This document shows, in pieces, positions 6,030-39,738 of a stretch of 64,000 bases of DNA. The position numbers were made by a program, and so were the translations under genes. This DNA comes from an uncultured Gemmatimonadales bacterium (lineage in GTDB: Bacteria > Gemmatimonadota > Gemmatimonadetes > Gemmatimonadales > GWC2-71-9): NCBI GenBank assembly GCA_963695555.1, contig CAVOGR010000002.1, positions 1-64,000 on the forward strand. The letters are read 5' to 3'. The stretch's first letter is position 1. Every line of letters begins with the position of its first letter. The notes beneath the pieces were generated by a model, which worked only from the letters and a program-made list of their open reading frames with translations, did no database searches and was not told where the DNA came from.

Positions 6030-6061
6030 ACGGTAGGAGTCCAGGGTCAAGTGGAAGTCAA
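6030..6061 (-). promoter_or_regulatory. SARP-type promoter box
   Basis: - strand: TTGACTT-ccac-TTGACCC-N8-TACCGT. Confidence 0.7.
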
Positions 6062-6198
6062 GGCGCTTGCAGGAAGAGATCGCTGAGGGGTAGGAGCCAT
6101 AAGCTATTGGTTTCTTGGCTGCTCGAGAGATTCCGACCGACTTAAGTAGGACTGTCCTCCTGACAGGGGTGACTCTCTCTGGCTTCAACCGGTGCTCC

Positions 6199-6684
6199 TC
6201 AACATAGATAACCATCTTGACTAAAACAGGCGACTGCAGCGCCAACAACAAGGGCGAGTAAGATGCCGACCTCCGCGCCGCCGGACATCCCTTCCTGGCG
6301 GACGAACACACGATGAACGTTTTCGAGGGGGAACGTGTAAGTCGTATCCGAAACGCCGCTCTGATCCTGTACCTTCACCGGGCCAAAGACCGTGTCCCTG
6401 ACGATCCAGCCCGGTGGGTCAAACATATATCTGCCGCCCTTTTCAGTGACGACTCCGAGGATGGGGACCGGGCGGCGTATCACGTCAGCAGGTTTGGCCT
6501 GCCCGATGTGGGAGCACCCGGTGGTCTGCACGAGGAACAGACACATGACTACTGCTGCCAAAACTCGCCTCGCGAGGTTAGGCACTAACGGTTCTGGGCG
6601 GTTCGGGAACATGCCGCATCTCCCTTGAGAAGAAATCGCGATGTTACCGCTGGTGGGGATGCCAACAACGGCCATTGCCTTCAT
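6199..6684 (-). CDS. Hypothetical lipoprotein/membrane protein
   Basis: ORF with QTTGC lipobox-like segment and C-terminal TM; ATGA overlap with upstream gene (alternative start 6612). Confidence 0.5.
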   Translation of the reverse strand: MKAMAVVGIPTSGNIAISSQGRCGMFPNRPEPLVPNLARRVLAAVVMCLFLVQTTGCSHIGQAKPADVIRRPVPILGVVTEKGGRYMFDPPGWIVRDTVFGPVKVQDQSGVSDTTYTFPLENVHRVFVRQEGMSGGAEVGILLALVVGAAVACFSQDGYLC

Positions 6685-7088
6685 GTCGGCTCTTCTTGCG
6701 CTCTACAATCGAGCCTTCCGATCGGGGACTTGTCAGTGAACTCGCGTTCTTCCAGACCGACAGGAGCGCTGAGGATACTCACGAGTTCCCAGCCACCTCC
6801 GACGTGTGTGGCCAGGATGACAACGAGGTCCTTGCATCCCTCTTTCCGATAGGTCACCGCATGTTCCCGGTCGGGAGAAAGAGCCAGTTTCAACGGGGTT
6901 CTCCCCATCAACTCACCGTTCACCAAGACCTCGGCGCTGTCCGGGATCGACTCGAACAGCAGCTCGGCTTGCTCGGCGACCGATACGACGGGTCCCAGAG
7001 TCATGGGTCCCATACCTATACATGCAGAGATGGCCAGACCCACACCTAGGACAGCAGTGGTCGAGGCCAGTGAAATGACCTGTCTCAT
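6681..7088 (-). CDS. PEGA-domain lipoprotein
   Basis: AISAC lipobox; ESIPDSAEVLVNGELMGRTP PEGA signature; GAGG RBS. Confidence 0.75.
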   Translation of the reverse strand: MRQVISLASTTAVLGVGLAISACIGMGPMTLGPVVSVAEQAELLFESIPDSAEVLVNGELMGRTPLKLALSPDREHAVTYRKEGCKDLVVILATHVGGGWELVSILSAPVGLEEREFTDKSPIGRLDCRAQEEPT

Positions 7089-7113
7089 GTTGCTTCCTCA
7101 CTTAAGTTTTCAA

Positions 7114-7309
7114 CTCAGGCGGGTTCGCAGGAGGAGCGGCGTCAGGAAGGCGTCAGACCAGCGGCGGGCTCGCCCGAGGCAGGGCGAAGAGGTCCTATTT
7201 GGCTCCTCATAACACCGGGATGGGCAAGCCATCGTGAAGTGCGGGGGAAAACTTCTTCACGATGAAACGAGCTAGGGTTCTCCCTAATTCCGACATAGCA
7301 ATTCAGGTT
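7114..7309 (-). promoter_or_regulatory. Conserved upstream element, copy 2
   Basis: Colinear with 25282-25481 over ~195 bp. Confidence 0.7.
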
Positions 7310-7378
7310 AGTGGGTACTGGTGTTATGGCGGCTGTTTCACTCCTCACTCCTCACTCCTTACTCCTCACTTCCCGCCT

Positions 7379-7924
7379 TCAGAACCTCAAAACAACGCCA
7401 ACTCCGACCCCATTCTGCTGCGCAACGAGCCGCGGCCGCACTCGATCGAGCGGCACCTCCGACCACTTGTCGCTCTTGATGAACGCGCCCACACCAGCGC
7501 CGATGAGGCCAAGGCCGATTCCGCCCAGCATCGCCTTCCCGCCGGCGTCAATCCTAGTCTCCATGAAGCCTCCTGGCGGATCGTCGCCGGACGCCACCCC
7601 GATGACGAAGCCGAGCAAGAATCCGAGTCCTGCGCCCTGGATTGCGTGACCGCGACCGCCCGTCCTGACGTCCAGTTTGGTGACCATCGGCATCGCCACG
7701 TGCACCGTGTCGGCCCGCAGGTGCCCGCCCCGCATCACGTCCGTCTCCAGCACCAGGGTGTCACCCCTCGTCTCCCGTACTCGGCCTACTTGCGCGTCCA
7801 AGCCGAGCGTGGGAGCGGTGACCCTGATCTTGGCGCCGGGTGTTACCCACTGCGCGCCTTGTGCGACGGCTCGAGCGGGGCCGATTAATGTGAACGCTGT
7901 AACTGCGAGTATGATGTTGCGCAT
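7379..7924 (-). CDS. Secreted glycine-zipper protein, paralogue 3
   Basis: MRNIILAVTAFTLI... GVGVGVVLRF; very similar to 5399-5938. Confidence 0.8.
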   Translation of the reverse strand: MRNIILAVTAFTLIGPARAVAQGAQWVTPGAKIRVTAPTLGLDAQVGRVRETRGDTLVLETDVMRGGHLRADTVHVAMPMVTKLDVRTGGRGHAIQGAGLGFLLGFVIGVASGDDPPGGFMETRIDAGGKAMLGGIGLGLIGAGVGAFIKSDKWSEVPLDRVRPRLVAQQNGVGVGVVLRF

Positions 7925-8025: not shown

Positions 8026-8069
8026 ACGGTAGGAGCCCCGCGTCAAGCGAGGGTCAAGTGGGGAGTCAC
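8026..8069 (-). promoter_or_regulatory. SARP-type promoter box
   Basis: - strand: (GTGACTC)-TTGACCC-tcgc-TTGACGC-N8-TACCGT. Confidence 0.7.
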
Positions 8070-9565: not shown

Positions 9566-10603
9566 CTACGCGGCGACCCGCGGGCGGCGGCCGTTCAGCA
9601 ACACCCGCCGAAGCGGCAAATTCTCGAGCACCGCGAGCGGGTGCAGCAGATACCGCTCCACTTCCACGTAACAGGCGAGAAAGCACCGCGTCGCGCACGC
9701 CGGGTCGGTGATCCACTCGGCTTCGCGCTGCATGAGGGTGCACAGATCGGGATAGTCCTGCAGATACACCTGCCGGTCCATCTTCCGCTGGCACGGCAGA
9801 TACACGCGCCCATCGGGCTCGACCCGCGGCGACACCAGCGGGAAGCACCGGTGCGGGATGAAGTCGCGGATGGCGCGGAGATAGGCCGCGGAACAGAACA
9901 CCGGCCGCCCCGCCGCCTTGGCCCGGACCAGCCGGTCGAGCAGTGCCACATATGATGGATTGCCAGGCAGGTCGGGATTGGGATCGTACCGGCCGTGCTC
10001 GGGCGAGAGGGTGAGCTCGGCACCCAGTTCTGCACAGAGCGCGAGGATGTCCTCGATGCCGGCGATGGTCTCCGGTGCCACAACCGCGTGCAGACTCAGC
10101 CGGAACCCATGCTCCCTGGACAACTCAGCCGCCTGCCGGATAGCGGGCAGGATACGGCCGGTGATCCTCGGCACACCGCTCATCACGTCATTGATTGGAC
10201 CATCGATCGAGTCGAGGCTGATCACCACGTGATCGACCAGATGCAGGTCGTCGACATGGTGGTGCAACAGGAGGCCGTTGGTGCTCAACAGCAACGGCCG
10301 GAAGTCGAGCTCCCGGGCCCGCCGGAGCACCGCCCCTACGCCGGGATACATCAGCGGCTCGCCCCCCGTGATGTTGAGCGCCGGATTGTGCGGCCGGATC
10401 TTGTCGAGCAGTGCCACCGCCTCCTCCGTCGGCAGGCTCGGCTCGGGTCCGGGTGGATAGCAGTAGCGGCAGCGGAGGTTACAGCCCTTGGTGAGATAGA
10501 AATTGGTCATCAAGGGCCGGAACTGCCGGGCCCCGGTCCGCACGCAGTACAGGTCGATCAGGAAGTTGAGCGCCAATTCCGAATATGTGCGGGCGCTACC
10601 CAT
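9566..10603 (-). CDS. Radical SAM protein with C-terminal Cys-rich (SPASM/twitch-like) region
   Basis: CNLRCRYC, ITGGEP, C-terminal C...PC...CATRCFLAC; ATG 10603 overlaps upstream stop. Confidence 0.85.
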   Translation of the reverse strand: MGSARTYSELALNFLIDLYCVRTGARQFRPLMTNFYLTKGCNLRCRYCYPPGPEPSLPTEEAVALLDKIRPHNPALNITGGEPLMYPGVGAVLRRARELDFRPLLLSTNGLLLHHHVDDLHLVDHVVISLDSIDGPINDVMSGVPRITGRILPAIRQAAELSREHGFRLSLHAVVAPETIAGIEDILALCAELGAELTLSPEHGRYDPNPDLPGNPSYVALLDRLVRAKAAGRPVFCSAAYLRAIRDFIPHRCFPLVSPRVEPDGRVYLPCQRKMDRQVYLQDYPDLCTLMQREAEWITDPACATRCFLACYVEVERYLLHPLAVLENLPLRRVLLNGRRPRVAA

Positions 10604-11381
10604 GCCTGCCTCCCTCCGCCGGCGACTGGTCGATGGACTCGTGCAGGGCGCGGAGCTGGCGAGCTCGCAGGGCCTCACCACCGTCACCTGGTACCGGCTC
10701 CCCCCGCGCCAGCCGACGGAGCGCCGCCAGTCGTTGCAATGCCGTGAGGTTGGTGAGCAGGGCAAGCAACCAGACGATCGGCGCAAGCGGGAGCGTCGCC
10801 ACCCGTGTGATGCCGAACCCCAGAGCCTCCGCGGTGACGGTGAGCCAGCCGACCAGCAGGGTGTGCCCGACGCTCAGCAGCAGCCCCGCGGCAATCAGCG
10901 TCACCCTGTCCTGCCGCCGGAGCACGCCGGTGCGAAAGGCGTATCCATGGGCCTTGCCGACCGCCATGACGTAGCTGGTCGCCATTGAGCCCACCAACGC
11001 GAGTACCGCGGCCAACGCCGTCGCATCATGTCCGCCGCGCGCGAAGAAGATCGTGAGGCCGACGTAGACCGCGGCGTCCGCGTAGCGGTCGAGGATCGAG
11101 TCGAGGATGCCGCCGAACACCGTCACGCGATTGGTCAGTGCGGCGACCTTACCGTCACTGAAATCGAGAATCCCGCCCGCCACGATGAGCGCGCACGCAG
11201 TGATCAGGTGCCCGAAGGCGATGAAGACGCCGCCGCACAGGGTCAGCGTGAACGCCGCCACGGTAATCGCATTCGGGTTCACCCGGGAAACGATCAACCG
11301 GCGGATGACCGGCGTCACCGAGCGGGTGAACCAGGCGTCCAGCCAATCGGGGATGAGTCCCGTCCGCGTCTCGGATCTCAT
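10596..11381 (-). CDS. CDP-alcohol phosphatidyltransferase (PgsA/PIP-synthase-like)
   Basis: PNAITV; DFSDGKVA...GGILDSILDRYAD. Confidence 0.9.
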   Translation of the reverse strand: MRSETRTGLIPDWLDAWFTRSVTPVIRRLIVSRVNPNAITVAAFTLTLCGGVFIAFGHLITACALIVAGGILDFSDGKVAALTNRVTVFGGILDSILDRYADAAVYVGLTIFFARGGHDATALAAVLALVGSMATSYVMAVGKAHGYAFRTGVLRRQDRVTLIAAGLLLSVGHTLLVGWLTVTAEALGFGITRVATLPLAPIVWLLALLTNLTALQRLAALRRLARGEPVPGDGGEALRARQLRALHESIDQSPAEGGRHG

Positions 11382-12266
11382 GCCGGTGCCTCCCGCTCGG
11401 GTACCAGCACCCGCAGCGCCCGCCGGTCGAACGACCAGAGCGCCGGGGTGGAGCCCGCGGCCTCGCCATCCGCGAAGATGTCGCGGGGCGACTCCGTTAC
11501 GACCCGTACCGTCTGCCCGCGCCGCATCACGACACCCTGACGATTAGTATGCGTGCCGCGAAACACCCGGGGGAACTCGCGCAGTAAGCGGCCGCGCGAC
11601 ACCTCGGCCACGATACACACATCGAGCGCTCCATCGTCCATCTCGGCTGCGGGAGCGATACGCATACCTCCCCCGTAACATGGTCCGTTGGCCACCGCCA
11701 CCAGCGTGATTGCGCCACTCCAAGTCCAGTCGTCGACCGTCACCTCCGCCTCGAACGGCCGAAACGCGGCCAACGCCCGCAACACGCAGACGACATATCC
11801 GGCCGTTCCGCCCAGATATCCGGCGCGATCCCGTGCCAGCCGGTTTACCAAGGCGTCGAAGCCGACGCAGGCGACCGAGGCGAACGGCGTGCCGTTCACG
11901 GACGGGAGATCGACCTGGCGCTCGCGCAAGTGCCGGCCGCGCAAGAATGCCTCGCCGTCCCATCGTCCGGCGTCCAGGTTACGCAGGAAGTCGTTGCCTC
12001 GACCCGCTGGGACGACCCCGCACGGCAACCGCGCTTCGGCCAGAGCATCGAGCACCCCGTGCACCGTCCCGTCACCGCCCACCAAGACCACGCCTTCCGT
12101 TCCCTTGGCCGGTGCAGCCAGGATCAGTTCACTGGCCTGCTCCGCGCTTGCGGTGACTACCCACTCGAGGTCGTGATCCCCGGAACCGCTCACGCGTAGA
12201 CGCGTCCAGTTGCCGGAGCGCCGCCCCGCCTCCGGCATGCGGATTAACCAGGCCGAGCAGCCGCAC
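11378..12266 (-). CDS. Diacylglycerol kinase family lipid kinase (YegS/DagK), frameshift near 12170-12210
   Basis: GTG 12266 after AGGAGG gives VRLLGLVNPHAGGG; other frame gives GGDGT, PAGRGNDF, GFDA, NGPCYGGGM, DGE. Confidence 0.85.
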
Positions 12267-15200
12267 CGTGTTCCTCCTCCCAGGCTCGGGCCTGCATGAC
12301 AAAATTCTCGAGCAGGCCATACATCTGTTCGTCGCGGCGTCCGTCGTAGTGAAGGTGCCGAATCGGGAACCCGCCCAGATCGTCGGACACGCGCCGGCTC
12401 AACGCCTCCACAATGCCGCCCACCATGCAGCCGAATGGCGATACGTGGATGACGCCGCCTACCCCGCGCCGGAAGAGATCGATGCTTCGACCGATCCCGA
12501 CGATGGTCTCCCCTTCGAACGTGTTCGGCACATAGGGTGCCGCCAACCGGAACAACTCCGCAACCGAGGGATACCCGGCATTGGCCAGCCGTCCGCGCAC
12601 GGCCCGGGTGAGCCGTGCCATCTCGAAGCGCTGCAGGGCGTCTATCCCACGGAGCGAGAGTTCCCGTTTCCACTGGCCTTCGTAGCGACAATGGAGCCGC
12701 GCCGTCCAGTTGGTGTACAACACCCACTCCGCGAGTGATGGGTACCAGACCTCCGCGCCGAGCGCTTCGAGTTGGTCCGCCACCGCGGCGTTGGCGGCCG
12801 CGTTGCAGCGCACGTAGTTCTCCCCCAGGAGTCCCACCCGAACCGGTGGGCGGTGATTGCGGAGCGGCAGCGCCTCGAGCCGATCGAACCCGCGCCGGAG
12901 CACGTGGGCAAGGCCCTCGCCCCGTTCGATCGCCATACCGAGCGCGGCCAGCCCTTCCTTATAGGGTGCATCTGCCTCCGCGCGATCGACCGCCCGCGCC
13001 CGGCATTCCCGCCACTTTCTGAATAGGAGGTCCGTTGCCACGATTCCACTCCACACGCGGCGTTGAAAGCCCGCGGGGACCATGCCGAACTTTTCATAGA
13101 ATTCGGGATCCTGGCTCGCGTTGAAGATCGGGACGTCGGAGTGTCCCTGATCGTCGAGCACCACCCGCTGCAGCCACGGGTACTGCCCCAATCGACATGG
13201 TCCGTCGCCGGCGATCATGAAGAACGCCGGTTCGGGATCACTGGGGCGCTGGTGCTCGAGCTGTCGCAGCATGTCGCCGAGGACGAAGCTGCAGGGGAGA
13301 CATTCTCCGCCGTCCAACGCGGCCCGGCCCAGCGCTACCGATTCCTCGTCCGGGAGCGGGAGCACCTCGGCGTCCACGCCGCACGAGCGGAACGCAGCGG
13401 CGAAGGCGATGGCGTGGTCCGACATGCGGGGGATGAAGAGTCGGCGGGTCGCGAGGTCCGTCCCCGTTACCGCGCCTGGTGCGGATGGAGAAGCCGGAGT
13501 GGGTGCCCGCCGTGACCCGAACGTCCACCGGAACGCTTCGACCCGGGTGTGGATGCCGTTGAACTCGCTGTGCTCGTCGACTTCGATCTCGAGCAGCGGC
13601 ACGTCCCCGAGCTCGCGGCGCAGCATGTGCACAATGAACGAGTCGGGGCCGCACCCGAAACTCGACACGCTGATGGCCGAGATGTCCCCGAGGCGGCGGA
13701 GTGCCTGCGCGGTCTGGAGGATCCGCTTTCCATAATACCAGTACATGTCGTGCAACTCGCCGCTCGCGAGCGCCTCATCCCGCACCATCTCCATCGGTAC
13801 CCCGGTGACCCCGACGTCCGCGAGCACCCGGGTAAGCCGCAGCTGGACCTGCGGGTCGCACACCGTGTACGGGCGGGCGAGGATCACCGCCGTGGGCGAT
13901 GAGCCCCGCCGAGCCAGCACCTCATCCCCACGTTGCAGCATCTCCCGGCGGAAGGTGTCTTGCGCCTCACGAGCCGCGGCGAACGCGGCGCGCGTGTGAC
14001 GAGGCGACCGACCCAGCGTGCGGCCGAAGGCCACCATATCGTGCTCGGCCAGCCGCGGAAGTGACAGCCGGAGCCGCGGGATCAGGTACTCCACACCCTC
14101 GGGAAGGAGCGCCCGCGTCGTGTAGGGCCAGCCCTGCACGGCCGGGCACACATGATCGAGCCGCTCCGCCACGGTGCCGTGCTCGAGGCTCGCGACCGAG
14201 GGAAGCAGAATGCGTCGTACCCCGGCCGTCACCAGCGCGTCCACATGACCATACGCGACCGTGAGCGGCAGACACGCGTCGTGCCGTGCCAGCACCATGC
14301 CCCGCTCCAGTGTCGCCCGAGTGGTAGGCGGGGACAGTACATACGGCACACCGAGGTGACCCAGGAACGCGGTCCAGAACGGGAGCTGCTCGAGGAAGAG
14401 CAACGCGCGCGGGATGCCTACGGCATCCGCATCCCCCGGCGAAGCTTCCGCCACCCACCGGGTGGCGGCCGCCTCCCGTTCGGCAAACAGATCCAGCCGC
14501 TGGGCGGACCGGCCACCGTTTCCCCTGTCTACCTCGCCTCGTCCGTCGTAACGGTCGCACAGCCCGCCCGCAAAGAACCGGCGGCGCGATGGTCCTTGGG
14601 TGACGTGGACGGTGCAGCGATTACTGCATTGTGGGCAATTGAAGCTCCGGGTGCGGATCCGGGAGAGATCGCGCGCTCGAAGCCCCTGGAAGCGCGATGG
14701 ACCGCACACCTGCTCCGCCGCCAGCAGCGCGACACCGATTGCACCGGCCGCGTCGTTGAACGGATGCACCGTGACGTCGTGTTCCAGCACCTTCCGAAGT
14801 GCCGCGACGACTGCACCATTCGCGGCCACACCGCCCTGAAACGCGATCCGCCGGCCCGGTCGGTGGCGTCCAACAACTCGCCCGAGGTAGTTGCGCACCA
14901 CCGCATAGGCCAGTCCGGCCGCGAGGTCCTCGCGCGCGCAGCCTTCCTGCAGCCGGCGCGCGATCTCCGACGCCATGAAGACCGTGCAACGCTCTCCCAA
15001 CTCGATCGGCGCCCGGGAGCGGAGCGCTTCGCGCTCGAATTCCCCGACGATGTCCAGCCCAAGCACGGCTGCCATCTCCTCGAGGAAGGAGCCCGTGCCC
15101 GCAGAGCACACCTTGTTCATCTCGAACCCCACCACCGCCCCATGATCCAGCCGGATGTACTTGGCGTCCTGCCCACCAATGTCGAAGACCGTGTCGGCGT

Positions 15201-18296: not shown

Positions 18297-18305
18297 GGCT
18301 GACGC

Positions 18306-23105: not shown

Positions 23106-23375
23106 ACGCCGACCTCGCTTCGCGGCAACGAACATTGCGATGTCCCGAACCGTGGCGAAGTTGCCGATTACCAGCTCGTCGTCCTCCACATGGATCCCGA
23201 AGTGCTGCTCCAGGAACGCGACTACCGAGATCACGCTGCCCGAATCGACGATTCCGCCTTCGAGCAGCAAATCGTCGTCGCGCAGGCTGTCCGGAGGATC
23301 GCCCGGCAAAAAGTTCTCGAGGATGTAGGCCCGTATCTCATGGGCGATCAGCTGCACGCCTGGGTAGACTCGCAT
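23106..23375 (-). CDS. Acyl carrier protein
   Basis: IRAYILENF...LLEGGIVDS..VVAFLEQHFGI.V.D.EL...NFATV; read in frame with the downstream rSAM, probably because of an indel. Confidence 0.85.
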
Positions 23376-25211: not shown

Positions 25212-25243
25212 ACAGTGACGGTCCGGTATCAAGTACCAGTCAA
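25212..25243 (-). promoter_or_regulatory. SARP-type promoter box upstream of lipid cluster
   Basis: - strand: TTGACTG-gtac-TTGATAC-N8-CACTGT. Confidence 0.6.
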
Positions 25244-25281
25244 GCCAGCGCCAAGGCCGCTCAAACGAGGCCTTCTATCGG

Positions 25282-27019: not shown

Positions 27020-27032
27020 TAGCCAATAGCTC

Positions 27033-28212: not shown

Positions 28213-28332
28213 CTCCTTACTCCTCACTCCTTACTCCTTACTCCTTACTCCTTACTCCTCACTCCTCACTCTTTGCTCCTCGCTATCTACTCCTCGCCTC
28301 CTACTCCCTACTCCCTACTCCCTACTCCCCTA
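28213..28332. repeat. (CTCC[TC][TC]A)n heptamer array
   Basis: Tandem ctcctta/ctcctca/ctcccta; representative of arrays in most intergenic regions. Confidence 0.9.
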
Positions 28333-30017: not shown

Positions 30018-30949
30018 GATCCACCTCCGGTGCTGAGCTCCGCCTCGGGATCGAGCCGCGGGAAGACCGGTAGCGGCAAGCGCTCGACTGATGCCCCACT
30101 GAACACACCCCTCAAGAGCGGCACCGCCACGACCTGCAACGCCGTGGCCCACACCAACCCGCCCAGAGCATCGATGGCGTAGTGGTTCTGGGTGTACACC
30201 GTGGCGAAGCAGACGCCCACGGTCTCGGCGATGATGAGCCAGGCCCACCGGCGCGGCAGCCAGCGCCACGCCAGGTAGGCGATGGTGACCGAGCCCGCGA
30301 CATGCGAACTCGGGAACGCGGTACCGAGCGAGTCGCCCGAGTTGTGCGCGGCCTGGACCAGCTGATACCAGAAGCCCTCGGTCAGGCCGCCCTGGTAATG
30401 CGGTAAGAGCGCCGCCGGACCGTCCACCGGGAACCACAGGTAGAGCGCGTAGCAGCCGAGGTAGGTCACGGCCAACCGGAAGGTCATGTCGCGCATGGCC
30501 GTATGCTGCCCCATGAGCCCCACCGCTATCACGGGGATGAAGATCAAGGGGTAGTAGGCGTAGTAGATGAAGTGCATGACCTCGCTCAGCCACACGTCGG
30601 GCATCCGGGGCATCCAGGTCAGGTTGAAGTGCTGGCCGAATACCCGGAGGTCCCACGCGGTCACGGTCTGATCATGGACCCCCACATGGTAGAGCTCGCG
30701 CAAGTAGCCGAGCTCGGTCCAGAAGGCGAGGATGAAGAGCAATGGGTAGATCTCCCTCAGGATCGCCACGGGACGTGCCAGGTCGCGCGGCGCTCTATTC
30801 AGGAAGAGCGGCAGCGCCGCGGCCGCGACGTGCGCGGCGAAGATCGCCGGCGCGTAACCGGCCTTCGCCACCACGGTCAGCCAGACCGCGGCGAGGAACA
30901 CGTTGTAGCCCGATACGACCGCATCGACGGGACGGGTTTGGTGTGTCAT
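30014..30949 (-). CDS. PAP2-family / inositol phosphorylceramide synthase (Aur1)-like membrane protein
   Basis: FPVDGP, AFPSSHVA, HYAID motifs; multiple TM. Confidence 0.8.
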   Translation of the reverse strand: MTHQTRPVDAVVSGYNVFLAAVWLTVVAKAGYAPAIFAAHVAAAALPLFLNRAPRDLARPVAILREIYPLLFILAFWTELGYLRELYHVGVHDQTVTAWDLRVFGQHFNLTWMPRMPDVWLSEVMHFIYYAYYPLIFIPVIAVGLMGQHTAMRDMTFRLAVTYLGCYALYLWFPVDGPAALLPHYQGGLTEGFWYQLVQAAHNSGDSLGTAFPSSHVAGSVTIAYLAWRWLPRRWAWLIIAETVGVCFATVYTQNHYAIDALGGLVWATALQVVAVPLLRGVFSGASVERLPLPVFPRLDPEAELSTGGGS

Positions 30950-31926
30950 AGCCACCGTTCCTCCTCATACCAGCGGGCGGTTTCTTCGGTGCCCCGCACG
31001 ACCGGATAGGCTGGTACAAAGCCCAGCTCCCGCTCGGCGGGCGACACGTCGCACACCCAGCGCTGCTGGGTCAGCTCACGCACCCGCTCGCGATTGAGAA
31101 TCGCCGCGGCGTGCCGGACCTTGGCACAGCCCTCAGCCGCAACTGCAATGAGGCGAGCCACACCGACCGGCACACTCACCAGCCGGGGCTCGCGATGAAG
31201 AGCCTGCCCTATCGCAGCCGCGACCGAACGCCAGGTGACCAGCTCGGGATGCGCCAAGCAGTAGGTGCGGCCCACCGCACCTGGCGTGTCCGCGGCCTCG
31301 AGAAGCCCCTGGACCGCGTCGCGCACATAGAGCATCGAGACCTCACGGTCCCAGCCACCGACGGTCAGGGCCACGCCATGCTTGATCATCCGGAACAGCG
31401 TGAGCACTCCCTTCTCACGTGGGCCGTACACCGACGTGAAGCGCAGAATCGTCGCGGGCACGCGGTCCTGATAGGCGTGCACCAGCACCTCGGCCAGCAG
31501 CTTGGAATGGCCGTAGTGAGACAGCGGCATCGGTACCGTGTCGGGCGACAAGAGTTCGCCGTTTCGGCAGGGGCCGGCCGCGGCCAGGGACGAGAGGAAC
31601 ACGACCCTGGGTGCCCCGCCGTTGTGTGCCGCGGCGGCCTTCAGGACCCGCGCCGTGCCCTCGGTGTTGATCAGGTAGTACTCGTGCGGCGTCCGGGCCT
31701 CGGTGAGTGCGGCCAGGTGGAACACCACGTCGGCACCATCACAGGCTTCGCGGAGCGCTGCGACATCCCCGAGTCCGATATCTCGATACTCGATCGGCAA
31801 GTCCCGGAGCCAGCGGTTGGGCGCGCCGGGCCGCTCGATGCAGACGACGTCGTCGCCGCGGGCGACCAGCGCCTCGATCAGGTGGCTCCCGATGAAGCCT
31901 CCGCCTCCAGTAACGATTGCACGCAT
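30946..31926 (-). CDS. NAD-dependent epimerase/dehydratase (extended SDR)
   Basis: VTGGGGFIGSHL, SSLAAAGP, YGHSK, VYGPR. Confidence 0.9.
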   Translation of the reverse strand: MRAIVTGGGGFIGSHLIEALVARGDDVVCIERPGAPNRWLRDLPIEYRDIGLGDVAALREACDGADVVFHLAALTEARTPHEYYLINTEGTARVLKAAAAHNGGAPRVVFLSSLAAAGPCRNGELLSPDTVPMPLSHYGHSKLLAEVLVHAYQDRVPATILRFTSVYGPREKGVLTLFRMIKHGVALTVGGWDREVSMLYVRDAVQGLLEAADTPGAVGRTYCLAHPELVTWRSVAAAIGQALHREPRLVSVPVGVARLIAVAAEGCAKVRHAAAILNRERVRELTQQRWVCDVSPAERELGFVPAYPVVRGTEETARWYEEERWL

Positions 31927-31953: not shown

Positions 31954-31985
31954 GAGTTACCCACCGGGAGTCAAGCGGGGCTCAA
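31954..31985 (-). promoter_or_regulatory. SARP-type promoter box (overlaps 3' end of hydrolase gene)
   Basis: - strand: TTGAGCC-ccgc-TTGACTC-N8-TAACTC. Confidence 0.55.
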
Positions 31986-32883
31986 GTGCCTTGCCATGGG
32001 CCAGCGACCAGTCGCGCATGTGCTCGATGGCCTCGACCACCGCGCCGGGACGCTCCTCGTGGATGTGATGGCCGGCGCCACCGACCGTGTCGACTTGAAA
32101 GGCGTGAAGCGTGCGGTGGAAGAGCGCGATCTCGCCGGCGGAGACCCCGCCTTCGTGCGGTGCCGTTCCCCTGAGCAGGAAGACGGGAGCCGGGATATCA
32201 GCCAGATGATCCCGGAGGCGCTCCGGCTCGCGGGCCTTCCCCATCTGGATGTAGGCCAGGAGGGTTCCGTCCAGGTCGGCCGCGGTGCCGGCGGTGTAGC
32301 CGGCGACCACCTCGTCGGTCACCCAGCTCGGATCGCCCGACGTTTCGATGAAGCCCTTCCGCATTTCCTTTCGGACGCGCTTGACGCCGCCGGCCCACTT
32401 GATGAACGACACGAACCGAAGCGCCTTCTTGAAACCGGGTGTGGCGGCTTCCTCGGCGGGGCCGCCCTCGATTGAGAGCAGCGCTCCCACCGCGCTGGGC
32501 CGGCGATACGCCAGGCGCAGTGCGATCGATGCGCCGAGCGAGTGGGCAACGACCAACGCGTCGGAGATACCGAGCGTGTCGAGCACTGCGGCGACGCGAT
32601 CGGCCTGGGCGGTGAGGGAGTAGTCGGCCTTCTCGGGGCGCGACGAGTGACCGAAGCCGAGCGGCTCGATGACGATCGCCTGATACTCGTCCGATGGAAG
32701 GAGCGCGATCACTTTGCGAAAGGCGTAGGCCGAGCCGGCCAGCCCCGGTATGAACACGACCGGCCGACCATGGCCCACCACCATGACATGGAGCGACTCG
32801 GCCCGGGCGACGGTGACGTACCTACTCAGGGCGGAGTCGGGCGACGCCGAGGCACTGAGAGCGAGCATGAGGGCGAGCCACAT
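31957..32883 (-). CDS. Secreted alpha/beta hydrolase
   Basis: Signal peptide; GFGHSSRP, AHSLGAS nucleophile elbow, GAGHHIHEERP. Confidence 0.88.
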   Translation of the reverse strand: MWLALMLALSASASPDSALSRYVTVARAESLHVMVVGHGRPVVFIPGLAGSAYAFRKVIALLPSDEYQAIVIEPLGFGHSSRPEKADYSLTAQADRVAAVLDTLGISDALVVAHSLGASIALRLAYRRPSAVGALLSIEGGPAEEAATPGFKKALRFVSFIKWAGGVKRVRKEMRKGFIETSGDPSWVTDEVVAGYTAGTAADLDGTLLAYIQMGKAREPERLRDHLADIPAPVFLLRGTAPHEGGVSAGEIALFHRTLHAFQVDTVGGAGHHIHEERPGAVVEAIEHMRDWSLAHGKALEPRLTPGG

Positions 32884-32912: not shown

Positions 32913-32944
32913 ACGTTCGCCGCGCGGGGTCAAGTCACGATCAA
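32913..32944 (-). promoter_or_regulatory. SARP-type promoter box
   Basis: - strand: TTGATCG-tgac-TTGACCC-N8-GAACGT. Confidence 0.6.
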
Positions 32945-33007
32945 GCCGCGCGAGGCTCGGTGTCCCCGCGCGGCTTGGTTACGCCGTCTCCGAGTGTGGT
33001 CACTTCA

Positions 33008-34219
33008 CTACGGCGTGCATTGCACCTCCATGTCGTACCCGGTGGACGACCCCGGCCCGACCTTGAGCACCACCTTCATTCTGCCGCGGAATGGGCCCGA
33101 CGGCGGCACCTCGATCTGCAGCACCACGCTCGACACCGAGGACAGGTGGTCGTTCAGGCGGGCATGGTCGTTCTGGTTGATCACGGCCGTGTACGTCTCT
33201 GCCAGCGGCGTCGGTGGGCTGGTGCTGGGATCCACCGGCGTCAGGTCGAGCTGCCCGTGGGCGCGGAACATGGTCAGGTAGTTCCCGCCTTGGGTCACGA
33301 TGGTCCGTTGGGTAAGTTCGATCGGACCGGTCACATACAGGTACTGGAACGCGTCACCCGAGCAGAACGGCTTCGGAATCACCTGATCGAACTGGATGGT
33401 GTATTCCTGGGTCGTGACGCCGGGCGTCGGCGTGCTTTGGCCGGTCACGAATAGGACGGTGGCCTGCCCATCGGTCAGGATCGGCACGGGATCGGTGGTA
33501 CTCGGCGGGCCACCGACCAGCGCCTTCAGCTCGTCCGGCAATCCGTTGTAAATCATGGCCGGAATCTCACGCCACGGCGCCGGGTTGATGGGCGGCGTCA
33601 ACGTGAGCGGCCCACCCGGATCGAGCAGGCCCGACCGCAGAAAGTCGATGACCACCAGCTGCTCGGCCAACTCCCAGTGGATGACCTGGTGCTCGTGTGT
33701 GCCGGGAATCAGCAGTTCGAAGTGCGCGTTCGCGACCGTGATGCTCCCCATGTCGAACAACCGAACGTGGAATCGCAGTGGATCATAGGCACCGCACTCG
33801 AGCTGTACCGCGCTGCCTTCCCACCCATGCGGCTCGGCGTAGGCGCCCTGCATCGTGCCGCCCAAGGCATCGGTCCAAGTGCAGTTGAATGGGAACGCGT
33901 CCGGAAGACCGAACATGGTCCGGTTCCCGTCGAGTCCCATCAGGGCCGAACGCAGTTGCTGTGGATTCGCCTGGCCGCTGAAGATCAGGTTCACCGGGTC
34001 GTCCGGCGTCGCGAGGTTCGAGCTGGTGAACGGCCAGAAGGTGAGCGACTCTCCGCCCACGTCGACCGTCACCAGCGGCGCAGGCGCCTGCGCATCGTTG
34101 GTTTTCGCCGAGAGTTCGGACACGGGGCCGACCGGATCCGACCCATCGTTGCAGCCAACGATGAGGACCAGGGAAAGTGCGGCTGCGACAATGCCCCCAG
34201 TCATGCGGCATGACAACAT
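33008..34219 (-). CDS. Hypothetical lipoprotein
   Basis: LIVGC lipobox; GGAGG RBS; 403 aa. Confidence 0.75.
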   Translation of the reverse strand: MLSCRMTGGIVAAALSLVLIVGCNDGSDPVGPVSELSAKTNDAQAPAPLVTVDVGGESLTFWPFTSSNLATPDDPVNLIFSGQANPQQLRSALMGLDGNRTMFGLPDAFPFNCTWTDALGGTMQGAYAEPHGWEGSAVQLECGAYDPLRFHVRLFDMGSITVANAHFELLIPGTHEHQVIHWELAEQLVVIDFLRSGLLDPGGPLTLTPPINPAPWREIPAMIYNGLPDELKALVGGPPSTTDPVPILTDGQATVLFVTGQSTPTPGVTTQEYTIQFDQVIPKPFCSGDAFQYLYVTGPIELTQRTIVTQGGNYLTMFRAHGQLDLTPVDPSTSPPTPLAETYTAVINQNDHARLNDHLSSVSSVVLQIEVPPSGPFRGRMKVVLKVGPGSSTGYDMEVQCTP

Positions 34220-34585: not shown

Positions 34586-34635
34586 CTCCGGGGTAACCCG
34601 GCCCTCCTTACTCCTTACTCCTTACTCCTTACTCC

Positions 34636-36564
34636 CTACTCCTTACTCCTCACTCCCTTCACAGCATCCATCACCCGCTCCCGCCCTCCCGCCGTAATCA
34701 TGTCGCGAGCCACCACCTCACGCATGATCCGGGCGACGAACACGTAGCCGCGCGATTCGAAGCTGAGCCAGCGCTGCCACTCGAGCTGATCGAGTGCCGC
34801 GTTTACCTGCTCCTCGGGGAAGCCGGTGGCGGTGGCCAGCATTTCGGGCGACGGGCGCTCGTCGAGGATAGCGGCTGCGGCCAAGACCTGCTGCGCGTCC
34901 GCACTCAGGCGATTGAAGCCGATTCGGATCGCGGCGACGATGGTGTCGGGCAGGCCGCCGGGTGCGGTCTCGGACAGAGTGTGAAGCGGCGCGGGCCAGG
35001 CACCGGCCTGGGAATCGAGATCGAACCCGGAGGCGATGGCGTGGAGCAGCTCGACCGCGAGGAGCGGGTAGCCCGCGGAGTCGGCCACTAGGCGGCGCGC
35101 GAGGCGCGCGGTTTCCTGCTCGGCGTAACTCGGGATGGCCCAGTGTGCCAGTTGCGCGAGTGCTTTCTCCGAAAGCGCGCCGAGGGTGAGGCACACGCCC
35201 GGCACGTCGCGCCCGAGTCGGGAGCGGAGGTCGTCCAGCTCGTCACGGCCCTCACGGGTATTCGCGGTCAGGATGAGAAGCAGCGGCGTCGCGGCCAGGT
35301 CACGCAGCAAGGCAAGTACGGCGGAGAAGCTATCGTGATCCAGCCAGTGGGCGTTGTCGATCATGACCACGACCGGTTGTTCCACGAGCGCCGCCTGGAA
35401 CACTTCGCCAATGGCCTGCCCGACCGGCTCGGGCGCGATGCCCTTCACCGCCTGGGCGTACTGGTCCTGCCACTCAGCGAGGTGCTGGGTGAAGCTCGCC
35501 AACGCGGCCGGCGGCGAGCCCGCGACACCCGCGATGTCGAGCAACCCGCCGCGCGCCAGACCGTACACACCGCTCCACTCGCGCGACCGATCGGCCTCGA
35601 CCGCCCGCAGTGCCACCACGGCGGCACCATCCAGCCGCGCTCGATCGAGCAGCTCGTCGGCCAGCCTGGTCTTCCCGGTGCCCGAGTCCCCCAGAATCAC
35701 CACGGCATGTGCCTCGCCGCGTGCGGCACATGCGTCCCAAGCCCCGACGATCGATCCCAACTCCTGTTCCCGTCCCACGAGCGGCGCGCGGCGGCTCTCA
35801 GCCAGATTCTTCGCCGCGTCGGACCGCGTGGCCGACGATGCGAGACCCAGCGACCGATCCTGCCGAATCCGTTCGGCGAGCTGAGCGGTGGCCTGTTCGG
35901 GCTTGGACTCGAGTTCCTGCACCAGCCGGTTGGCCAACGCGTCGTAGCGCTCCAACGCGGTTGCCCGATTGCCCGACAGCGAGAGACAGCGCATCACCGC
36001 CCGAAGCGCCGTCTCCGACCACGGGTCGAGCACAGTGGCCCGCTCGGCGCGCTGAGTCGCGTCGCTCACGTGACCGCCAGCCAAGAGTTCGTCGGTGTAC
36101 TCCGCCAAGACCTCGACGCCGCGGCGGCGCCAGGTGCCACGTTCCGCCGTGAGCCAGTCTTCGAATTCGGACGCGTCGTCAATTCCGAATCCTTCGAGGA
36201 AATTCCCGCCGACCATGTCGCCCGCACGCACAGTGTCACCCGCTGCTGCAGCTTGCTCGAATTGATCGACATCGAGCTCGACCGCATCGTCCGCCAACTC
36301 GACCGTATCACTCTCGGTCGTGATGTTCTTCTCGCCGATGATCTGACGCAGCGCGCGCAGCGCTTCGTTCAATGAGTGGCGTGCGGCCTTCTCGTCCTTA
36401 TCGGCCCAGAGCAGACCGATCAGGTGCTGGCGGCTCCGCCGGCGATGCGGCGAACGGGCCAGGTAGATGAGCAACGCCAGGTTCTTCCGCCACAGGAGCT
36501 CGGCGGGGGCCGGCTGGCCGTCGACCCGCACCTCGACCGGGCCCAGCGTCCGGCAGGTGATCAT
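34636..36564 (-). CDS. SARP-family transcriptional activator (OmpR-type DBD + BTAD + AAA ATPase)
   Basis: RTLGPVEV, ALLIYLA, L..LLW, LDPWSE.A.RAVMR, A..RY; LVGRE.EL, GDSGTGKT; ATGA coupled to the kinase. Confidence 0.9.
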   Translation of the reverse strand: MITCRTLGPVEVRVDGQPAPAELLWRKNLALLIYLARSPHRRRSRQHLIGLLWADKDEKAARHSLNEALRALRQIIGEKNITTESDTVELADDAVELDVDQFEQAAAAGDTVRAGDMVGGNFLEGFGIDDASEFEDWLTAERGTWRRRGVEVLAEYTDELLAGGHVSDATQRAERATVLDPWSETALRAVMRCLSLSGNRATALERYDALANRLVQELESKPEQATAQLAERIRQDRSLGLASSATRSDAAKNLAESRRAPLVGREQELGSIVGAWDACAARGEAHAVVILGDSGTGKTRLADELLDRARLDGAAVVALRAVEADRSREWSGVYGLARGGLLDIAGVAGSPPAALASFTQHLAEWQDQYAQAVKGIAPEPVGQAIGEVFQAALVEQPVVVMIDNAHWLDHDSFSAVLALLRDLAATPLLLILTANTREGRDELDDLRSRLGRDVPGVCLTLGALSEKALAQLAHWAIPSYAEQETARLARRLVADSAGYPLLAVELLHAIASGFDLDSQAGAWPAPLHTLSETAPGGLPDTIVAAIRIGFNRLSADAQQVLAAAAILDERPSPEMLATATGFPEEQVNAALDQLEWQRWLSFESRGYVFVARIMREVVARDMITAGGRERVMDAVKGVRSKE

Positions 36565-39371
36565 GTGGGACACTCCCGAGCAAGCTCCGCCGCATGGTCG
36601 CGGAGCGGCGCCACCTGGGGCTCCGGGTTGGTCCAGATCTCGAGTAGGCGCCGCACCATTTGGCAGGCCCGCTCCCCGTTTCCCAGTTGACGCAGCACCC
36701 GGCTCCGGTCGAGCCGCGCGTAGGTGCCGACCGCCCAGTCGATTTCGGCCGCTTGCGCCTCACCCGCGAGCCATCCGGCGAAGTCCGAGTTTTCGTACCA
36801 GAGCCACTCCTTTTCCGCCTCCTCGAGTCGACCGACCTGTTCGTACCAGAGGGCACGATGGCGATGGAGCACGGCGCGGGCGAACGGATCGGCCATTCGG
36901 TCGGCGGAATCGGAGGCGAACAGTGGTTGCGACAATTCCAGAGCACCCGCGTGATCTCCCGTCAACGCGTGACGCATGGCTTCCAGGAAGGTGACCAGTC
37001 GCAGTGATGCCGCGTTCCGACCAGCATGCTGTCCGGCTCGGGCGTGCCAGGCGCCGAGCCTCGCCGCATCGTTCCTGGTGTATGCGTCGATTCCCAGTGC
37101 CCATGCCGCCCGGACGCCGCGATGCCCATCCAAGGCCAGCGCTTCCAGTACTTGGCGACCTTTGACCGCCTCCACTTCAGGTAGGGTGCCGGCGCCGAGC
37201 GCCAGCAGCAGCACGCGCCACTCATGAGCTTGGAGGCGGGCCTCGTCGGTGGGCGACAGGCTGAGCGCGGAATCGAGATGCGCGAGGCCGGCGCCAGGAC
37301 GTCCCAGGGCGATCGACGCCAGCCCCTGGCCGGTATGACCACTGGCGTGTTGAAGCGGCGGGGCACCGGGAACATCGGCCAACCACTTCCCGAGCTGGAG
37401 TTGGGCGTTCGGGATATCGAACGACAGTCCCATGCGCACGACCCGTGATACATCGGCAACGAAACTCGTTTCAGAATTTGCCAGGAGCGTTGGCTCCAGG
37501 GCCGCTGCCGAGTCGGGAGCAAAGCGGTAGAGATAGGCGAGCCCCAGCTGTCGCCCGACGTCGAGCTCTCCGCCCGGCTGCGTGCCGATCGAGTCACGTT
37601 GCGCCACGACCCGCGCGGCTTCGTCCCGGCGGCCGAGGCGGATGTACGCCCATGCAACCTGATTGAGCACCGGCCCGAAGCGCGGATTCAATGCTCGCGC
37701 CGCTTCCATCGTGTTGAGGGCGTGTTCCAGCTGCAATCCCGAGAGCGGGCCGCGATGAAACAGCTCGTTCCCGTACACGAACTTGGCGTAGAAGTCGTGC
37801 GGATAGAGCGAGTCGGCCCGGGCGTAGATTGCCCTCCGTCGCGCCAGATCGGGCTCCAACTGGGCCGTGATCAGGAGCGTGTCCAGGGGGCCAAAGTCGG
37901 CTTTGTGCGCCGTGTACACCTGGGCCAAGTCGATGTCGGTTGGGATCCGCTGCCACCGCCGCGTGTCGGCCAGGCGCCAGGCGGCCTGGGCGAAGGTCGA
38001 ATCGATGGCCAGCGCTGCCTCGAAGTGATTCCCTGCCACCGCCCACGCATCGCGTCCGAAGGCAATCTGCCCATTGAGGAATTGGCTGATGGCCCGGAAG
38101 TCCTTGGTCGCAAGGCTCGGGATCTCACGATACAACGACACCCAGAGAGGAAAGACCCGCCGCACCAGGTCCAATCCAATCGAGTCCGGGAGCACAGCCC
38201 ACGCGGTTTCCTTGGCGCGGTGCGGCGGCAGCATGGTGCGATTGCCGTCGACATCGAGGACGTACATCTCGACCACCAGCTCGTCGCCCTGGCGGATGAG
38301 TTGCCCTTCGGTTCGGTTGCGTGCCCGGGTCGAGTCACGCTGGGCCAACTCGATTTGCGGCAGGCCCCGGAGCTTGAAGTGGAGCGCCTCAGCGAACTCC
38401 AGCCCAAGGTTCGGGTCGACGCCTCCAGCAACGGCCAGCGGTGGAATCGCGAGATCCGGCAACGCGGCGGCCGGAGCGCCACCACAGCGCGGCCACCATT
38501 GGAATAGCCGGCAGAGTGGCGCCGGAGGAACCAACAGGAGCAACGCGGCGACCGCGATCAGGGCCAGCACTCCGGCGGGCCGAAGGATCGAGCGGTGCCG
38601 GATCCGGTCGAGCGCCTTCCGGAATTCAATCGCGTCGGCCCAGCGGCTATCGGGTGACCGCGCGAGCGCGCGTTTGAGCAACGTGGCGACGCGGAGCGGA
38701 ACGCCTCGCCAATCGGCATCGGCCGCGGGGACGTCTCGATTCCATCGCCGGCCGGAGCAGGCCTCGTAGAGCACCATGCCCAGCGAGTAGAGATCGCTCC
38801 GGGGCGACACCTCGCCGGTCGATTGTTCCGGCGCCATGTAGGCCGGGGTGCCCACAAAATGACCCGCTTTGGTCAGCGTGGTATCGCTCGACGTGCGGGC
38901 GATGCCGAAATCGCCGAGCAAGGCGCGGTCCTTCATCAGGAAGATGTTGGCGGGCTTGACGTCGCGGTGCACCGTGCCGAGTTGATGGACCGCCTCGAGC
39001 GCACTCAGGAGCTGGACACCGAGCGACGCGACATCGGGAACCGACAACGGACCGCGCTCGAGCCTCGCGGCGAGCGACTCGCCCTCGATCAGGTCCATCA
39101 CGTAATAGTGGAGACCCGCCACTACGCCGGCTTGATGGATGGCGATGATATTGGGGTGGCTCAGGGTGGCGAGGAGCCGGGCCTCGCGGAGAAACCGTTC
39201 CGCGGCCACGGCGGTCGCCATCTCCGGCCGCAGGACCTTGATGGCCACCCGGCGGTCGAGGGTGGGATCATGGGCGACAAATACGATCCCCATTCCCCCG
39301 GATGCGAGTTCGCTTTCGACCTCGTAGTGGGGTCGGAGCGCCACGCGCACCCGTTCCAGCAGCAGGCTCAT
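36561..39371 (-). CDS. Ser/Thr protein kinase with TM and TPR-like C-terminal region
   Basis: ASGGMGIV, VAIK, HRDVKPANI, DFGIAR, GTPAYMAPE. Confidence 0.93.
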   Translation of the reverse strand: MSLLLERVRVALRPHYEVESELASGGMGIVFVAHDPTLDRRVAIKVLRPEMATAVAAERFLREARLLATLSHPNIIAIHQAGVVAGLHYYVMDLIEGESLAARLERGPLSVPDVASLGVQLLSALEAVHQLGTVHRDVKPANIFLMKDRALLGDFGIARTSSDTTLTKAGHFVGTPAYMAPEQSTGEVSPRSDLYSLGMVLYEACSGRRWNRDVPAADADWRGVPLRVATLLKRALARSPDSRWADAIEFRKALDRIRHRSILRPAGVLALIAVAALLLLVPPAPLCRLFQWWPRCGGAPAAALPDLAIPPLAVAGGVDPNLGLEFAEALHFKLRGLPQIELAQRDSTRARNRTEGQLIRQGDELVVEMYVLDVDGNRTMLPPHRAKETAWAVLPDSIGLDLVRRVFPLWVSLYREIPSLATKDFRAISQFLNGQIAFGRDAWAVAGNHFEAALAIDSTFAQAAWRLADTRRWQRIPTDIDLAQVYTAHKADFGPLDTLLITAQLEPDLARRRAIYARADSLYPHDFYAKFVYGNELFHRGPLSGLQLEHALNTMEAARALNPRFGPVLNQVAWAYIRLGRRDEAARVVAQRDSIGTQPGGELDVGRQLGLAYLYRFAPDSAAALEPTLLANSETSFVADVSRVVRMGLSFDIPNAQLQLGKWLADVPGAPPLQHASGHTGQGLASIALGRPGAGLAHLDSALSLSPTDEARLQAHEWRVLLLALGAGTLPEVEAVKGRQVLEALALDGHRGVRAAWALGIDAYTRNDAARLGAWHARAGQHAGRNAASLRLVTFLEAMRHALTGDHAGALELSQPLFASDSADRMADPFARAVLHRHRALWYEQVGRLEEAEKEWLWYENSDFAGWLAGEAQAAEIDWAVGTYARLDRSRVLRQLGNGERACQMVRRLLEIWTNPEPQVAPLRDHAAELARECPT

Positions 39372-39388
39372 TTTTGCGCCTCGCTGGA

Positions 39389-39428
39389 ATGGTGCGGCTT
39401 CCCGGGAAGAAGGTCAAGCGGGAATCAG
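39389..39428 (-). promoter_or_regulatory. sigma70-like promoter of kinase-SARP operon with degenerate repeat
   Basis: - strand CTGATTC-ccgc-TTGACC-N17-CACCAT. Confidence 0.45.
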
Positions 39429-39483
39429 CGGTTCGGCGGTTCGGCGGTTCGGCGGTTCGGCGGTTCGGCGGTTCGGCGGTTCG
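39428..39483. repeat. (GCGGTTCG)7 octamer array
   Basis: Seven perfect tandem copies. Confidence 0.95.
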
Positions 39484-39517
39484 AAGGTCGCTCACTGCAA
39501 CGTCACGCGCCACATGC

Positions 39518-39636
39518 TGTCATCCCGAGCGCAGCGAGGGATCTCCTCGGCTGCTACACGAACGCGGCCTTGGTCCGCGACTCTCCGGGCATGCGTTCAT
39601 GAGATCCCTCGGGCGCTTCGCACCCTCGGGATGACA
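39518..39636. repeat. REP-like palindromic element copy C
   Basis: Same arms as copy A. Confidence 0.85.
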
Positions 39637-39706
39637 ATCCGGAGGTTATCAGCCTCCTCACTCCTCCACTCACCACTCCTTACTCCTTACTCCTCACTCC
39701 TATCCC

Positions 39707-39738
39707 TTGACCCCCCCTTGACCCCCGCCGGCCACCGT
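39707..39738 (+). promoter_or_regulatory. SARP-type promoter box
   Basis: + strand: TTGACCC-cccc-TTGACCC-N8-CACCGT. Confidence 0.7.

Follow-up and report, generated by a model that had tools for sequence, protein, structure and literature searches.

Among activators of the SARP type (Streptomyces antibiotic regulatory proteins), two described systems come closest to the locus analysed here, namely AfsR of Streptomyces coelicolor, which has the gene of a Ser/Thr kinase (AfsK) nearby, and EmbR of Mycobacterium tuberculosis, which is paired with the membrane Ser/Thr kinase PknH and acts on the envelope genes embCAB. The locus in question lies in a stretch of 64,000 nucleotides from an uncultured Gemmatimonadales bacterium (GenBank assembly GCA_963695555.1, contig CAVOGR010000002.1, positions 1 to 64,000 of the forward strand), hereafter the window, in which a doubled CTTGAC element, the C-box, occurs seven times and a 642-aa AfsR-like activator is encoded at 34636-36564. 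Comparative analysis makes it highly probable that the C-box is a conserved promoter element of the Gemmatimonadales to which this activator binds, and by which it would switch on a set of dispersed genes.

In the AfsR system the afs box extends from -40 to -19, with contacted thymines at -38 and -27, and the afsS promoter combines the -35 element TTCAGC (-38 to -33) with the -10 element CACTGT, which ends at -7 (available text of PMC10936776). SARPs are called exclusive to the actinobacteria in the accessible portions of two papers (PMC10972967, PMC7040171), and a survey of biosynthetic gene clusters that defined SARPs by two Pfam domains placed most of them in Streptomyces (excerpts of PMC10663231). 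A BTAD activator with genetic support has nevertheless been described outside the actinobacteria, i.e. DnrS of Thermus thermophilus (GAF plus BTAD); its domain layout and targets differ from those reported here, and the accessible part of the paper contains neither biochemical data nor a binding site (PMC5748679). A literature search on SARP or BTAD proteins in the Gemmatimonadota, which covered few subscription journals, returned nothing relevant.

Seven C-box promoters and their register

The seven sites are real, and each was recovered with the coordinates, strand and hexamer that the initial annotation had assigned to it. Each is also directed at a downstream gene, a same-strand ATG lying 27-150 nt beyond the hexamer at all seven:

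6030..6062, minus strand: C-box promoter with -10 TACCGT; target the secreted protein 5399-5938; duplicate of the 8026 module
8026..8058, minus strand: C-box promoter with -10 TACCGT; target the secreted protein 7379-7924
25212..25244, minus strand: C-box promoter with -10 CACTGT, the hexamer of afsS; heads a large cluster; box kept in genome G282
31954..31986, minus strand: C-box with -10 TAACTC, ahead of an epimerase operon; overlaps the end of the hydrolase gene
32913..32945, minus strand: C-box promoter with -10 GAACGT; target an alpha/beta hydrolase; conserved in G002, G004, L085 and L099
34278..34310, minus strand: C-box promoter with -10 TAGCAT; target a 403-aa lipoprotein directly behind the regulator, from a family of 7 boxed targets
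39706..39738, plus strand: C-box promoter with -10 CACCGT; target a 122-aa lipoprotein divergent from the kinase, from a family of 9 boxed targets

The consensus of these sites is CTTGAC-N5-CTTGAC-N10-nAnnnT, with a repeat period of 11 bp and a distance of 15 nt from the second TT to the nAnnnT hexamer at 7 of 7 sites. The TTGA-N7-TTGA pairs in the window are exactly the seven sites, a C preceding both halves in each, and 200 simulations of the window with an order-3 Markov model yielded 0.58 sites on average and 3 at most, against the 7 observed. The 6030 and 8026 sites are copies of a single promoter-plus-gene duplication (the genes are 65% identical and the promoters alignable), so that at most six sites are independent. 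The weakest of the seven is the 31954 site, because it extends over the stop and the final codons of the hydrolase gene and because the last T is absent from its hexamer; the orthologous epimerase genes in L082, L085 and L099 have an intergenic C-box of their own. A degenerate third repeat is present 11 nt upstream of the 25212..25244 box.

The same signal appears in the 3.57-Mb genome: CTTGA pairs peak at a period of 11, with 17 cases, whereas every other period between 5 and 30, multiples of three left aside, yields 0-5. With a weight matrix built from the seven sites, 13 genome sites reach a repeat score above 20, of which seven are in the window and six on contigs C5, C6 and C7. The regulon, although clustered in the window, can therefore not be called local, as had been done, and in relatives the sites are dispersed as well. 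Among the intergenic CTTGA pairs (n = 13), nAnnnT occurs at one register in 12 and at none of eight others, and outside the window six of the ten CTTGA pairs have it in the window register, against a background of 0.030. Since the housekeeping promoters of this genome are TTGAC-N17-TAnnnT (38 cases at a spacing of 17 nt), the hexamer of the box is a credible -10.

The afs numbering implies that T-27 is separated from the -10 by 15 nt, as at all seven window sites, and the claimed SARP geometry holds both in its 11-bp repeats and in its register to the -10. In this numbering the C-box reads C-39 T-38 T-37 G-36 A-35 C-34. It shares T-38, T-37 and A-35 with the upstream repeat of afsS, TTCAGC, and differs in having G at -36 instead of a pyrimidine, so that it is a variant of the afs repeat and not, as had been proposed, a new repeat sequence or an unrelated word.

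The regulator, its kinase and the distribution of the box

The activator is encoded in an operon with a kinase:

34636..36564, minus strand: 642-aa AfsR-like activator with winged helix, BTAD and AAA_16 ATPase (Pfam); Walker A at 292
36561..39371, minus strand: 936-aa Ser/Thr kinase with a hydrophobic segment near 260-290 and a TPR-like tail; its stop overlaps the regulator start
39389..39417, minus strand: promoter-like site TTGACC-N17-CACCAT ahead of the kinase-regulator operon, 17 nt being the housekeeping spacing peak

The regulator matches BTAD with 58.3 bits (cut-off 22.1) and AAA_16 with 69.6 bits, while Trans_reg_C scored 22.9 bits in one search, below the cut-off of 26.2, and 27 bits, above it, in another. 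Most orthologues have the GxxGxGK(T/S) and hDD motifs, the window regulator having DN in the latter. The Pfam search matched neither a C-terminal TPR, the protein stopping at 642, nor an FHA domain, and NCBIfam holds no family for the regulator. For residues 1-247 a structure model built from 20 orthologues reached a pLDDT of 94.5, and its top six Foldseek matches, i.e. structures of AfsR (8k60/8hvr) and EmbR (2fez) with E 6e-10 to 4e-8 and TM 0.71-0.76, are the sole matches under E 0.001 and cover about 250 columns. The conserved residues by which AfsR contacts DNA are W74, T88, R92, R94 and K95; in the alignment of the orthologues of the window regulator W53 is invariant and R73 nearly so.

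With AfsR (PDB 8HVR, 8K60) the regulator has in common the order of winged helix-turn-helix (wHTH), BTAD and nucleotide-binding domain, the predicted fold, and two 11-bp repeats before a weak -10. It differs in its length (642 vs 993 aa, without the TPR tail), in its sequence (about 25% identity), in its occurrence in the Gemmatimonadota, in its envelope and lipid targets, and in the translational coupling to the kinase in many loci. EmbR (2FEZ) is the best PDB profile match among natural proteins (E 4e-11; TM 0.76) and the setting of a SARP next to a membrane Ser/Thr kinase recalls EmbR and PknH, but EmbR has an FHA domain where the window regulator has an ATPase domain. Apart from one contig titled Acidimicrobiia and another whose title says just 'bacterium', the related loci are assigned by their titles to Gemmatimonadales or Gemmatimonadota. 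The SARP family as defined, by an actinobacterial host and secondary-metabolite targets, does not include such a regulator, one of its target clusters being biosynthetic-like.

The catalytic motifs of the kinase (VAIK, HRDVKPAN, DFG and APE) are intact, and its tail gives weak TPR matches. A kinase is found upstream of the orthologue in 48 of 80 loci, and with the same tail in 38 of the 80; whether the two proteins form a signalling pair we judge to be an even question. In genome G000, two BTAD proteins (C7:138569 and C7:272924) consist of a SARP module fused to a tail that by eye resembles the kinase tail, one of them with a hydrophobic segment.

The C-box follows the orthologues of the regulator. 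In 40 relatives, the box with its -10 occurs in 20 of 24 genomes of family f1, in all 8 of f3 and in none of 8 of f2 (f1, f2 and f3 being family labels), and the reversed pattern was met once overall. Over 160 genomes of the order (72 of f1, 16 of f3 and 72 of f2) the C-box is present in 55, 14 and 8 genomes, and the N-terminal module of the regulator, at E 1e-35, in 48, 10 and none, respectively. At least two boxes occur in 43 of the 46 f1 genomes with an orthologue vs 5 of the 26 without, and in 51 of 56 vs 7 of 32 when f1 and f3 are combined. In these counts the weak matches of G075 (42%) and G149 (39%) were taken as lacking the orthologue, as was G155 despite its frameshifted copy, and the f2 tallies include G096, which has neither box nor orthologue. 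Seven genomes with at least two boxes were counted without orthologue (G155, G149, G028, G048, G119, G173 and G071), and in G149 the 39% relative lies beside the boxes. The box is sporadic in other orders (300 genomes of the phylum were scanned); among genomes outside the order that were picked by box count, five of five box-rich ones have the orthologue, as has one of five box-less ones.

Box and regulator gene are also linked on the chromosome. The 80 orthologue loci (1.21 Mb) contain 73 CTTGA pairs, spread over 46 loci, compared with at most six pairs at any other period tested, and 62 of the 73 have nAnnnT in the window register, compared with at most four in any other of 13 registers; the -10 hexamer played no part in this search. 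The position of the box relative to the orthologue gene varies among loci. In a tree of 47 rows the C-type orthologues form one branch (support 100/99). The initial annotation had left the choice between the SARP at 34636-36564 and a paralogue: co-occurrence, linkage and fold point to this regulator as the reader, and the second option is narrowed, as C-boxes track the orthologue clade and not the long paralogue introduced below or the four OmpR-type regulators that were tested.

Paralogues, counter-evidence and other readers

When every pentamer pair of the genome was scanned, three GTTGA boxes came to light in the C-box register, one of them, at C7:577992, 30 nt ahead of a 1113-aa SARP-ATPase paralogue at C7:578055. 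Such boxes occur in 62 of 72 f1, 4 of 16 f3 and 14 of 72 f2 genomes, the long paralogue in 43, none and none of them. Named by the base before each TTGA, the strict boxes in 30 paralogue loci are 12 GG, 3 TG and 2 TT, with none that has a C, and those in the 80 orthologue loci are CC in 66 of 66 cases; a relaxed box stands 37-53 nt upstream of the match in 20 of the 30 paralogue genes. The recognition helices differ in parallel. All 82 C-type rows have E and 81 of them R (E67 and R70 in the window regulator), and in the 23 G-type rows R is absent and the E position is taken by T (17), Q (5) or V; through the EmbR alignment these variable positions correspond to T88 and S91 of AfsR. The tree separates the two clades, with a support of 90/66 for the G branch (99/95 without its longest row), and a broader profile recovers additional paralogue genes adjoining G-boxes. 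The number of SARP-type paralogues per Gemmatimonadota genome ranges from several to more than ten, and our literature search found no paper on a one-base code between paralogues.

The long paralogue clade is therefore likely to read (G/T)TTGA boxes, and other readers may contribute. We lean, by a little, towards a more specific arrangement in which the kinase-coupled SARP-ATPase with a Glu/Arg helix would read CTTGA and govern envelope lipoproteins, an operon for sphingolipid-type modification and a mobile cluster for lipid biosynthesis, the SARP-ATPase-TPR clade with Thr/Gln plus Ser would read (G/T)TTGA and activate itself, and the first base of the repeat would separate parallel regulons.

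Several observations weigh against the proposed roles of these proteins. The base-contacting residues T88 and R92 of AfsR are apparently not kept, with E67 and A71 (A, V or I in orthologues) in their place in the register obtained through the EmbR alignment. The kinase is found upstream in only 48 of the 80 loci, and phosphorylation of AfsR has little effect on activation according to the available text of PMC10936776. No orthologue was found in the box-bearing genomes G003, G028, G048 and G119 (2-8 boxes; 120-420 contigs), nor in G173; conversely, fewer than two boxes are present in five genomes that have the orthologue, 34 of the 80 orthologue loci are without a strict repeat, and in G205, which has both orthologue and kinase, there is no strict box genome-wide and no relaxed box within 20 kb. 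Because the genomes are related, moreover, the co-occurrence counts overstate independence. As to the paralogues, G-box counts show no association with the long paralogue per genome (27/43 vs 22/29, with a single query), which renders the G-box reader less certain, and f1 holds 61 mixed C/G boxes.

These mixed boxes could mean that a degenerate (C/G/T)TTGA serves as the box of one BTAD paralogue or of several, i.e. that there is a single family-wide promoter class and no clean one-to-one code, as might also be suspected from the four SARP-like genes in the genome, from box-bearing genomes in which no orthologue turned up and from the failure of G-boxes to follow the long paralogue by genome. 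The mixed boxes, however, reach one third of the 183 expected from independent halves, f3 has 58 CC and 4 GG boxes against 2 mixed ones, the CC boxes of the orthologue loci (66/66) face paralogue loci with 0 of 17 boxes that have a C, and the C-box count is no higher in genomes with the long paralogue (2.7 vs 4.7 per genome). We consider this explanation improbable, and give still less credit to a reading by an OmpR/PhoB-type response regulator. The latter would account for the geometry, as 11-bp direct repeats are read by the OmpR-type winged helix of PhoP, whose PHO box GTTCACC consists of 11-nt repeat units and whose sites overlap those of AfsR (accessible part of PMC6988585); in addition the genome has four OmpR-type regulators, and lipid genes are plausible targets in phosphate stress. 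Yet the PHO word is another one, the regulator linked to the C-box in Gemmatimonadales is without a receiver domain, and the OmpR orthologues do not track the C-box: for three of the four regulators, 4 or 5 of the 5 genomes without it have an orthologue at 73-83%, the orthologue of the fourth is found in only one of five box-rich genomes, the PhoB-pst locus has none of the 13 sites, and the boxes crowd around the SARP gene.

Least of all do we expect that the repeats are a doubled sigma-70 -35 box or an alternative-sigma word that works without an activator, or that the regulator represses. TTGAC is indeed the -35 core of the housekeeping promoters with their 17-nt spacing, but the TTGAC copies of the C-box stand 20 and 9 nt from the hexamer, neither of which is near 16-18, the presence of the box depends on one patchily distributed gene, and the afsS promoter, with the same 20-nt spacer, requires AfsR (available text of PMC10936776). 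Activation through the C-box by the 34636-36564 regulator is thus the reading that we retain.

Other repeats were noticed alongside the C-box. A third class, CTTCA-N6-CTTCA, comprises 19 pairs, 14 of them intergenic, with nAnnnT one base further out in six; two of these repeats are neighbours of universal-stress-like genes and of the OmpR-type regulator at C12:66820. In the intergenic spacers, some leaders among them, 7-base tandem repeats of the GCCAATA/GCCGATA and GGAGTGA types occur again and again. Positions are:

CTTCA-class repeats: window 45072-45117 (minus); G000 C12:62522 (minus), C12:65438 (minus), C7:71214 (minus), C11:14382 (minus) and C5:240967 (plus)
7-base tandem-repeat spacers, examples: window 26511-26546, 28230-28265, 39700, 40383, 41263 and 42050

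In RNA runs, contigs of other organisms pile onto the 7-base repeats. RNA evidence was rejected altogether, as a guide to habitat too: eight runs contain 5-49% of the words of 30000-39900, and four runs over 24000-41000 offer contigs only, the best with a flat depth of about 9 over genes and spacers alike and with many other letters, so that this coverage shows neither transcription nor start sites.

Target genes and proposed mode of action

The first genes behind 95 of 96 boxes form recurring families: lipoproteins typified by 39769 (9) and by 33008 (7), a further lipoprotein family (8), secreted proteins of the 5399 type (6), lipid-type enzymes, and cytoplasmic proteins of two families (13 and 8). 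A signal or lipobox was called in 50 of the 95 boxed first genes vs 942 of the 3068 genes of the genome, and a lipobox alone in 29 vs 167, gene starts and signal peptides being crude calls from rough custom scripts. The commonest boxed family (13 of 95) consists of 160-215-aa cytoplasmic proteins, often divergent from the regulator (L081, L083, L092, L096, L104, L105, L110, L120, L122, L141 and L143). The predicted targets in the window, with one related operon elsewhere, are:

5399..5938, minus strand: secreted protein, 179 aa; target of the 6030 box
7379..7924, minus strand: secreted protein, 181 aa, paralogue of 5399-5938; target of the 8026 box
33008..34219, minus strand: predicted lipoprotein, 403 aa; target of the 34278 box
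39769..40137, plus strand: predicted lipoprotein, 122 aa; target of the 39706 box; a paralogue on C7 is also boxed
31957..32883, minus strand: alpha/beta hydrolase with signal-like N-terminus; target of the 32913 box
28330..31926, minus strand: small lipid operon of NAD epimerase/reductase, PAP2_3 enzyme, second epimerase and Rce1-like protease (Pfam)
9566..25061, minus strand: large cluster of phosphopantetheinyl transferase, epimerase, acyl carrier protein (ACP), B12 radical SAM, FkbH, B12 radical SAM and methyltransferase, then carbamoyltransferase, acyl-CoA dehydratase activase, lipid kinase, CDP-alcohol transferase and radical SAM
G000 C4:21205-25390 (L260): C4 operon of serine-palmitoyltransferase-like (Spt-like) gene, 374-aa gene, epimerase and PAP2 enzyme

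The 403-aa lipoprotein has no Pfam or NCBIfam family. A third paralogue of the 179-aa family, frameshifted, at window 4549-5338, has kept its leader and is without a C-box.

The module of hydrolase, epimerase, PAP2, epimerase and Rce1 adjoins the regulator in L076, L082, L085, L099 and L128; all of these loci but L128 have boxes. NCBIfam gives nothing over cut-off for the small-operon epimerases or PAP2, but two genes of the C4 operon resemble the first epimerase (40% identity) and the PAP2 gene (34%) of the small operon. In the C4 operon the Spt-like gene has serine palmitoyltransferase models on top, yet below their cut-offs, and the 374-aa gene has no NCBIfam family. This kinship suggests that the small operon serves sphingolipid modification. 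The bacterial ceramide pathway is that of Spt, bCerS and CerR; the C4 operon resembles such ceramide synthesis, on which the literature search found no paper for Gemmatimonadota.

The large cluster recurs in G282, a genome of another genus (C26:77320-93126), in the same order, as separate genes with 52-81% identity, and headed at the same place by a different C-box. By this comparison it is frameshifts, probably assembly errors, that in the window make the ACP/B12 and FkbH/B12 genes look fused and the radical SAM gene look split. The cluster is absent from the syntenic region of G002, and its presence in G282 with a box of its own marks it as a true regulon member that is probably mobile. It is a rare 12-gene set: a close carbamoyltransferase (75%) is found in one of 300 genomes of the phylum, again G282, while 55 others match at 38-46%. 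Its gene content suggests that it makes a modified lipid, and it reads more like a biosynthetic cluster than like envelope remodelling. That the regulon takes in lipid operons and secreted proteins is thus upheld, by boxes at both lipid-type operons that are conserved in other genera; of the envelope remodelling ascribed to it, the lipoprotein, secreted and lipid targets stand as gene families, and the function itself would follow from these families, with the large cluster rather biosynthetic. Further along, window 49891-59239 contains what from translations only reads as a glycogen/alpha-glucan cluster (phosphorylase, synthase, glycoside-hydrolase-like).

By analogy with AfsR, two adjacent wHTH-BTAD modules would occupy the repeats, which cover the -35 region, and capture sigma region 4. 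In this way they would rescue a promoter whose -10 is weak and whose spacer measures 20 nt, with a transcription start expected some 7 nt beyond the hexamer. More tentatively, an ordinary promoter may produce kinase and regulator constitutively, the ATPase domain may keep the activator quiet, and the membrane kinase may do the sensing that in AfsR the TPR tail may provide. The activator would then switch on lipoprotein, secreted-protein and lipid-enzyme genes, including the mobile lipid-biosynthesis cluster, and the paralogue clade would use the same geometry on (G/T)TTGA repeats, mostly at its own promoter, the first repeat base keeping the regulons apart.

The mechanism itself is that of AfsR. 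What is added is the regulon of a SARP-type activator, defined from sequence and with predicted sites in the hundreds, in the abundant and mostly uncultured Gemmatimonadota, whose many BTAD proteins and Ser/Thr kinases have no targets in the papers searched, and a candidate switch for the uncharacterised cluster of ACP, FkbH and B12-radical-SAM genes. The contrast between the two clades, two helix residues against one base, is moreover a sharp test of specificity among winged-helix paralogues and, if true, such a helix-to-base code would let targets be read directly from uncultured genomes.

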